Of a stretch of DNA of 64,000 bases, positions 12,860 through 13,017 are shown in pieces; the first letter of the stretch is position 1, and each line of letters starts with the position of its first letter. Made by a program: the position numbers and the translations under genes. Source of the DNA: a virus (Duplodnaviria; Caudoviricetes); the IMG/VR virus record IMGVR_UViG_3300024348_000029, positions 340 to 64,339 of that record; one strand, written 5' to 3'. Below the pieces are notes generated by a model, which was not told the origin of the DNA, did no database searches, and worked only from the letters and a program-made list of their open reading frames with translations.

Positions 12860-12888
12860 AAAAAATCCCTCTAATTTCTTAGAAGGAC
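12860..12888 (-). terminator. attenuator terminator of tRNA operon A (Pro/Glu/Gln/His/Leu/Leu/Arg)
   Basis: GTCCTTCTAA-GAAA-TTAGAGGGAT + T-run, 17 nt before tRNA-Pro. Confidence 0.9.
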
Positions 12889-12915
12889 TCTTGTATGTGT
12901 TACACCGAGGGTAGA

Positions 12916-13005
12916 TTAAAGACCGTCGACACCGAATACAGGGTTCCTTCCATTACATTGTAACGGTTGCTCCAGTAATTCGATATGGCGTAATACTTTA
13001 ATCAT
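12916..13005 (-). CDS. attenuator leader peptide A: MIKVLRHIELLEQPLQCNGRNPVFGVDGL
   Basis: 11 of 12 consecutive codons read by the 7 downstream tRNAs; GGAAGGA-ACCC-TGTAT antiterminator. Confidence 0.88.
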   Translation of the reverse strand: MIKVLRHIELLEQPLQCNGRNPVFGVDGL

Positions 13006-13009
13006 GCTA

Positions 13010-13017
13010 CAAATATA
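13010..13017 (-). promoter_or_regulatory. Bacteroidota-type -7 promoter element (TATATTTG), operon A
   Basis: exact TAnnTTTG, 4 nt upstream of leader ATG. Confidence 0.78.

Follow-up and report, generated by a model that had tools for sequence, protein, structure and literature searches.

The transfer RNA (tRNA) genes of IMGVR_UViG_3300024348_000029, a record of a marine Caudoviricetes phage in the IMG/VR virus database, include a block of seven that is preceded by a short leader, here called leader A (13017-12860, minus strand), just upstream of the first tRNA of the tRNA region. All positions refer to the window, the 64-kb part that was analysed of a record whose completeness CheckV puts at about 37%. 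We consider leader A to be, with a probability of roughly 0.75, a ribosome-mediated (leader-peptide) transcription attenuator of the seven-tRNA operon, reporting on the supply of the very tRNAs that the operon encodes. An attenuator had been proposed here in an earlier note made from the nucleotide sequence alone, and the proposal gains support because the codons of each of three leaders in the window match its own tRNA block only, the leaders recur in two further lineages, their codons partly track the tRNA content found there, the terminators abut the tRNA genes, and a complement to the terminator arm is present in all nine leaders of the family.

Anatomy of leader A

The ARAGORN calls on the minus strand, within 7496-12842 of the window, amount to 22 tRNA genes, and relaxed thresholds together with Rfam added tRNA-Trp(cca) and two tRNA-Ser genes. 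Everything that the earlier note had described for leader A is present on the minus strand, where the promoter elements, open reading frame (ORF), terminator and tRNAs are placed as follows:

13037-13039, minus strand: TTG resembling a -33 element of the putative leader A promoter, 19 nucleotides (nt) upstream of the -7 box
13010-13017, minus strand: -7 box TATATTTG of the predicted promoter, in agreement with the Bacteroidetes sigma-A consensus TAnnTTTG
12916-13005, minus strand: leader ORF A, 29 codons plus TAA (12918-12916), encoding MIKVLRHIELLEQPLQCNGRNPVFGVDGL
12958-12993, minus strand: sensor, codons 5-16 of ORF A (LRHIELLEQPLQ), placed by its codon match to the seven downstream tRNAs
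12937-12953, minus strand: region 2, the 5' strand of the predicted antiterminator (ATGGAAGGAACCCTG plus TGTAT), which pairs with the ATACA box and the terminator 5' arm
12861-12897, minus strand: ATACA box (12897-12893) and intrinsic terminator, placed by folding
12892-12879 (5' arm), 12878-12875 (GAAA loop), 12874-12861 (3' arm) and 12865-12860 (T-run), minus strand: parts of terminator A, a hairpin of 14 pairs
12050-12842, minus strand: block A, tRNA-Pro(tgg), Glu(ttc), Gln(ttg), His(gtg), Leu(tag), Leu(taa) and Arg(acg), called by ARAGORN and Rfam

The ATG at 13005 is separated from TATATTTG by the 4 nt tagc, and a sigma-70-style scan likewise marks a promoter at 13039-13012 (TTGCTA-16-TATATT, 9 of 12 matches). 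For Bacteroidetes, passages of a study of F. johnsoniae place the -7 element at -12 to -5, leaving 4-5 nt to the transcription start (PMC6847099); given this spacing, an ATG 4 nt after the box predicts that mRNA A is leaderless. For Flavobacterium psychrophilum, passages of another study give 5.5% of mRNAs as leaderless and report that amino-acid operons are likely to be preceded by leader-peptide attenuators (PMC9723704).

Terminator A is stable (-15.6 kcal/mol, z-score -5.1, equalled by none of 200 shuffles), and its hairpin lies 23 nt past the stop codon. The gene for tRNA-Pro begins 18 nt past the T-run, which leaves no space for a promoter of its own. The neighbouring gene on the other side of the leader (13088-13885) encodes a winged-helix, replication-initiator-like protein; as it is divergent, terminator A does not serve an upstream gene.

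Codon content of leader A

A codon count confirmed that 11 of the 12 sensor codons are decoded by the seven tRNAs of block A and that each of these tRNAs is represented, as the earlier note had it. All seven anticodons have at least one codon in ORF A, and all fall within codons 5-14. Significance was assessed by Monte Carlo with 100,000 random ORFs, each as long as ORF A and drawn from the window's own codon usage, scored against each tRNA set. The score of leader A against its own set has a P of 1e-5, with no occurrence among the random ORFs when full coverage was demanded as well; against the sets of two other blocks in the window, B and C, P is 0.75 and 0.73. When all six frames of the 64 kb were scanned, the nine codons of RHIELLEQP proved to be the shortest stop-free stretch covering all seven anticodons, and the runners-up need 10 codons.

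Leaders B and C of the same window

Blocks B and C have leaders of the same kind:

11331-11510, minus strand: leader B, with a -7 box at 11510-11503 and a GTG-start ORF at 11473-11390 whose product ends in VMDIATIVRVGGIDKISSGGTVAG
11411-11401 and 11366-11333, minus strand: region 2 and terminator of leader B, placed by folding
from 11329, minus strand: block B, tRNA-Ala, then Lys, Ile, Gly, Met, Met, Asp, Thr, Val, Arg(tct) and Met
9000-9148, minus strand: leader C, with a -7-like box TATATTTA at 9148-9141 and an ORF at 9136-9062 encoding MKAIVCSYSNYNFWSIRSGGTSTV
9082-9070 and 9034-9001, minus strand: region 2 and terminator of leader C, placed by folding
after leader C, minus strand: block C, tRNA-Tyr, Ser(tga), Ser(gct), Asn, Cys, Trp and Phe

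The promoter boxes of leader B are the same as those of leader A, and a 27-nt terminator core is identical in the two (two copies in the window, 0 expected by chance). The residues listed by ORF B, namely Ala, Lys, Ile, Gly, Met, Asp, Thr, Val and Arg (AGA), are exactly those of block B. Each of the three leaders lists its own tRNA block and neither of the other two, and the three blocks jointly account for all 20 amino acids. The gap between T-run and tRNA is 0-20 nt in the window (1 nt for block B); with terminators that abut the tRNA genes in this way, transcription of a block is possible only through terminator read-through.

The division of the genetic code among the blocks follows the first base roughly: block A serves C-starting codons for the most part, with UUR and GAR in addition, block B the A- and G-starting codons, and block C the U-starting codons plus AAY and AGY.

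Conservation in relatives

Three leaders were found in the same places in L003, a related uncultured contig (a neighbouring protein is 61% identical), and the cultured Cellulophaga phages phi4:1 and phi17:2, which grow on Cellulophaga baltica, also carry all three. These two phages have nearly identical leaders and were counted as one lineage, so that the family comprises three lineages with three leaders each, nine in total. Every distinct anticodon of the leader's own block is represented in 9/9. Own-block P is 0 to 1e-5 in five of the six A and C leaders, the sixth being leader A of L003 (9e-5), and cross-block P is at least 0.38 in all 18 comparisons; by six-frame scanning, the covering stretch comes first or tied first in eight of the nine.

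The A sensors of the three lineages, LRHIELLEQPLQ, LLHIEQPRPLL and QRLHLQELEQP, have kept their composition while the order of residues has been scrambled, and the same is seen for B and C. Differences in tRNA content are mirrored too. L003 is without tRNA-Leu(taa), and its leaders are without TTR codons, using only CTA and CTT for Leu; it is without tRNA-Lys and tRNA-Arg(tct), and its B leader is without AAR and AGR codons; it has two tRNA-Pro genes, and there are two Pro codons in the sensor. These correspondences suggest that the leader codons follow, at least partly, the tRNA content of the genome.

The start codons are arranged alike across lineages: an ATG stands 4-5 nt past the -7 box in four leaders, and a GTG has been kept in the three B leaders. 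By the same spacing rule, leader C of the window, leader A of phi4:1 and, with one extra base, leader A of L003 are predicted to give leaderless mRNAs.

One of the ORFs has been annotated before: gp075 of phi4:1 (L024, 5537-5656), a 39-residue hypothetical protein, is leader ORF B. Its annotated start falls within the predicted -7 box, and leaders A and C of this phage are unannotated.

That annotation, and the likeness of the C-terminal parts of the ORFs (ending in GGTSV, GGTGV or GGTSTV), would be expected if the leaders were small-protein genes with a function of their own, followed by leaky terminators that let the tRNAs be expressed by constitutive read-through. The conserved C-terminal part, however, corresponds to the strand of RNA predicted to pair with the terminator, and leaders A and B of the window share an 18-nt block but differ in the frame in which they read it, so that this block has been kept as RNA and not as peptide. 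In the N-terminal part it is composition and not order that is retained, and a protein function would leave unexplained why this composition equals the downstream tRNA set for three blocks in three lineages. We therefore regard such genes as a very unlikely explanation.

Searches for further relatives added little. A gapped terminator pattern gave 19 stretches, in which the only relatives were two contigs (L003, and L004/L022 from a sister sample); the other 17 had no tRNAs nearby or were unrelated. The exact terminator pattern had no matches among the viral contigs. The leader C pattern gave four stretches, these being the two known relatives and two without tRNAs, and a search with a 93-residue neighbouring protein returned no relatives. 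Among the matches listed for a tRNA-Glu pattern (at least 120 viral and at least 120 metagenome stretches), none had the gene order Pro-Glu-Gln-His; these loci were reused as background.

Alternative RNA pairing

Unconstrained folding gave, in 9/9 leaders, a 5' hairpin that pairs the sensor with the 3' part of the ORF (1:2) together with the terminator. A stalled ribosome was modelled by cutting the transcript after the terminator loop and masking 30 nt at mid-sensor. Under this mask, 5-11 nt of the terminator 5' arm pair with the 3' part of the ORF in all nine leaders, at fold energies of -14.6 to -30.0 kcal/mol. For leader A, 10 of the 14 arm nucleotides pair with nt 54-66, and the pairing of GGAAGGA..TGTAT with ATACA..TCCTTCT that the earlier note had read from the sequence is what ViennaRNA predicts when the sensor is masked. 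With the mask moved to the stop codon, energies were -1.9 to -14.8 kcal/mol in eight leaders, the exception being leader C of phi4:1 (-26.2 kcal/mol).

In a scan of ribosome positions, the arm was sequestered in 9/9 leaders while the A site lay in roughly the first 10-13 codons, and it was free in 9/9 with the ribosome at the stop if pairs spanning the ribosome were disallowed. Duplexes between region 2 and the arm were compared with those of 1,500 random window segments: six of the nine leaders lie at or below the 3% level, and the remaining three at 5.5%, 9.4% and 18%. The terminator arms themselves vary (TCCTTCT, GGTCTTGC, GCCTCTC, GATCCTGT), and region 2 varies along with them. As the registers of region 2 are slightly shifted in a MAFFT alignment of the nine 3' parts, each sequence was folded as its own duplex instead of counting pairs by column. 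A GAAA tetraloop occurs in seven of the nine family terminators.

Structure alone could also be read as a sign of non-coding RNAs, such as small RNAs or processing or pause elements ahead of tRNA precursors, in which the reading frames would be incidental. Leaders A and B do fold better than their shuffles (z-scores -3.5 and -2.7), and the leaders have no Rfam model, so an undescribed RNA could be at hand. The codon statistics, however, are specific to frame and block, the ATG keeps its place after the -7 box in four leaders and a GTG is conserved in three; this view is, to our judgement, highly improbable.

Proposed mechanism

From this anatomy, the codon statistics, the conservation and the predicted alternative pairings, we infer the start of transcription, translation of the ORF, ribosome stalling and the switch as follows. 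Transcription would start at or next to the A of the ATG and yield a leaderless mRNA, of which a ribosome would translate the 29-codon ORF behind RNA polymerase. If tRNAs for Leu (UUA, CUN), Arg (CGN), His, Glu, Gln or Pro were scarce or uncharged, the ribosome would lag in codons 5-14 and cover the sensor (region 1), leaving region 2 (GGAAGGA..UGUAU) free for AUACA..UCCUUCU (region 3). This 2:3 pairing would block the terminator hairpin (3:4), and the polymerase would enter the tRNA genes. With fast decoding, the ribosome would pass over region 2 toward the stop, the terminator would form and transcription would end at the T-run; with no ribosome, the sensor would pair with region 2 (1:2) and the terminator would form too. 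The net effect would be negative feedback, the tRNA block being made only when phage translation is short of those tRNAs, and leaders B and C would do likewise for the other two blocks.

Weighing the attenuator reading

Several observations count against this reading, and they concern both the codons and the RNA. The B leaders require a GTG start, and their own-block P is weaker (6e-4 to 7e-4), because the B tRNA set covers about half of all codons. L003 has kept a CGA codon in leader A, yet no tRNA-Arg(acg) was found there. The three lineages are homologous and hence not fully independent. Scoring by purity alone ranks low-complexity segments, such as Leu-rich frames, above the leaders, and leaves those of the window outside the top four six-frame segments for their sets; as purity did not single them out, the coverage statistic was used in its place.

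The last of these points, and the existence in the window of covering stretches equal in length to those of the leaders (one more for set B and three more for set C), bear on whether the match between ORF and tRNAs might be chance in an AT-rich intergenic region. The match occurs, however, at the predicted place, for three blocks and in three lineages, with non-significant values wherever leader and block are exchanged, and true tRNA sets beat mismatched ones in a screen of other phage tRNA clusters (see below). Coincidence is accordingly an extremely improbable account.

Each tRNA is represented in the sensor by only 1-3 codons, and there are no runs of the sort found in the leaders of his or pheA, so that a leader may respond little to any one tRNA. 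The same sparseness would suit attenuators that sense overall elongation speed or amino-acid supply, with a codon list that does nothing but bias the leader toward codons the phage needs. Moreover, an uncharged tRNA would stall the ribosome just as a missing one would, and classical attenuators sense charged tRNA, not tRNA abundance. Sensing of speed would not need what is seen here, a strict partition of the 20 amino acids that matches the three blocks and the presence of all anticodons in 9/9 leaders, and we think a sensor of this general kind unlikely, if less so than the other alternatives.

On the RNA side, the duplex of region 2 and arm in leader A (-11.2 kcal/mol) reaches only the 2.7% level against random window segments, and the antiterminator segment (-19.7 kcal/mol) is not exceptional, with a z-score of -1.1 and 29 of 200 shuffles as good. 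Only two of the nine leaders have a fully free arm with the ribosome at the stop once spanning pairs are admitted; in leader A, 8 of the 14 arm nucleotides are then still paired. A doubt over the masking geometry of leader A had been raised in the earlier note, and it is real: region 2 ends 20 nt before the stop, and a ribosome at the stop does not directly cover it. In six other leaders this distance is 5-11 nt. The L003 orthologue ends in CTGTATGA; leader A of the window reads CTGTATTC, is 7 codons longer and has lost the orthologue's stop. A comparable extension (33 nt) is found in leader C of phi4:1. Attenuation by leader A could accommodate this geometry, as a ribosome over codons 17-23 would still cover region 2 during synthesis of the terminator, and a ribosome halted at the stop would probably get in the way of any helix that has to close around it.

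Occurrence in other phages

We screened 177 regions upstream of tRNA runs, including L003 and L024 as positive controls. Eleven of them (two from L003) score 12 bits or more while covering at least 80% of the anticodons, compared with 5 of 862 mismatched sets. A stricter screen, demanding an ORF of 10-50 codons followed by a terminator, left 23 of 169 regions, and 6 of these 23 reach 8 bits, compared with 9 of 227 controls. Eight units were inspected, from contigs L231, L245 (two), L222, L157, L205 and L220 and from the cultured Leptolyngbya phage Lbo-JY46; chosen by score, they are to be taken as leads and not as an unbiased sample. The terminators lie 21-34 nt past the stop and the tRNAs 9-33 nt past the T-run (80 nt in one unit), and in six of the eight the 3' end of the ORF is complementary to the terminator 5' arm at a level of 5% or lower. 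One leader of L245 lists all 15 downstream tRNAs.

Five of the units are at about 2000-2163 in L231, 600-735 and 2200-2386 in L245, 6780-6986 in L222 and 3000-3213 in L157. Short tRNA-listing ORFs followed by terminators occur, besides L205 and L220, in L170, L217, L166 and L053; all of these, like L231, L245, L222 and L157, are unrelated viral or metagenome contigs. In Lbo-JY46 (L273), an ORF encoding MKITRQHTQFWFPTGTGLGML lies on the minus strand upstream of tRNA-Pro at 7529 and is followed by a terminator and then by Pro, Thr, Phe, Gln and His tRNAs. This phage, reported on a cyanobacterium, has Bacteroidetes-style promoter motifs (TTTG-N20-TAnnTTTG), which is odd for a cyanophage. The promoter of the L205 unit is of sigma-70 type (TTGACA-N17-TATTAT), which indicates that the design may extend beyond phages of Bacteroidetes.

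Two matches of the screen are probably not leaders: that in L052/L257 is a 96-residue ORF with no terminator, and that in L176 lies within a longer ORF. Neither the virus Rctr197k nor Bacillus phage P59 reached 9 bits, and blastn with the L245 and L231 leaders returned no cultured relatives.

That unrelated viral contigs and a Leptolyngbya phage show the same pattern suggests that it is widespread and has been overlooked, likely because the ORFs are too short for annotation. We lean towards the view that phages of several host groups carry an undescribed class of leader peptides that enumerate the tRNAs of their operon, each block regulating itself and being switched on when those tRNAs become limiting.

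The proposed reading bears on how phages control their tRNA genes and would offer an explanation for the ordered blocks in which these genes come. If it is true, a block could be induced by degradation of host tRNAs, by their cleavage through anticodon nucleases or by a phage codon demand that they fail to meet; the grouping of tRNA genes would reflect the design of the sensors, with one leader per block and blocks that jointly cover the code. This would be the first attenuator to sense its own output molecule, a direct feedback on tRNA supply, and textbook attenuation would reach beyond amino-acid operons into the translation apparatus that viruses encode. The leaders could also provide a handle on when phages need tRNAs, be it through codon demand, decay of host tRNAs or tRNA-targeting defence, and they are potentially compact, programmable sensors of individual tRNA pools.

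Other features of the tRNA region

The genes for tRNA-Trp(cca) (7755-7828; Rfam score 30.9 bits), tRNA-Ser(gct) (8064-8146) and tRNA-Ser(tga) (8154-8240), all on the minus strand, are invisible to ARAGORN at default settings and required relaxed thresholds. An ORF for an HNH endonuclease (8462-8911, minus strand; Pfam HNH, PHROG HNH endonuclease), within the stretch 8462-8990, is flanked by the complete tRNA-Tyr at 8458-8375 and, at about 8925-8990, by a segment with GACTGTAAAT that looks by eye like the 5' part of another tRNA-Tyr. This arrangement suggests the insertion of a homing endonuclease with partial duplication of the tRNA-Tyr gene. Two sets of repeats lie in the spacers between tRNA genes:

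8245-8381: between tRNA-Tyr and the Ser tRNAs, three 32-nt direct repeats, two of which match the reference copy at 88% and 69% identity
7828-7903: between tRNA-Trp and tRNA-Cys, a 35-nt element in duplicate, with 86% identity and 41 nt between the copies

Comparison with known systems

Rfam includes leader families for Trp, His, Leu, Thr and Phe. In the window, there were no non-tRNA Rfam matches at the gathering score; with E-values up to 1 in the region 7300-13150, nothing overlapped the leaders and there was no T-box match.

The T-box binds uncharged tRNA directly through a specifier codon and needs no translation. It shares with the action proposed for leader A a terminator/antiterminator switch that answers to tRNA status and regulates translation-related genes; the two differ in that the T-box reads tRNA by direct binding, whereas the reading proposed for leader A needs a ribosome. 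We know of no T-box that controls tRNA genes.

Closer in mechanism is the E. coli pheST (pheM) leader, which has Phe codons only and controls an aminoacyl-tRNA synthetase. It is, as leader A would be, an attenuator of a component of the translation machinery rather than of a biosynthetic pathway; unlike leader A, it is not encoded by a phage and has no tRNA genes among its targets. The trpL, hisL, leuL and pheL leaders, the last of which appears in PMC3082878, have in common with the proposed action of leader A a ribosome-mediated attenuation that reads the supply of charged tRNA through the codons of a leader peptide. They differ in being devoted to a single amino acid, with codons in tandem runs, and in feeding back through the amino acid and not the tRNA.

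The nearest parallels are the multivalent leaders of enterobacteria, those of thr (Thr and Ile codons) and of ilvGMEDA and ilvBN (Leu, Val and Ile). As in leader A, where promoter and pairings are predicted, a short ORF with more than one kind of regulatory codon lies between a promoter and an intrinsic terminator, 1:2, 2:3 and 3:4 pairings are available, and stalling favours read-through, as it would in leader A. The thr and ilv leaders regulate biosynthetic enzymes, whereas the targets of the phage leaders are the tRNAs themselves; their sensors consist of runs of one to three amino acids, whereas those of the phages address 5-9 tRNA species (elsewhere up to 15) with 1-5 codons each. Leader A is further set apart by being phage-encoded and predicted to be leaderless, by its Bacteroidetes-type promoter and by its lack of a match to any Rfam leader family. 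No prior description of tRNA-listing leaders of this kind was found in full-text searches of the literature that is open without subscription. What is known, then, is ribosome-mediated attenuation as in thr and ilv; what appears to be new, as far as we are aware, is its proposed use on tRNA genes by means of a leader that lists the operon's own tRNAs.

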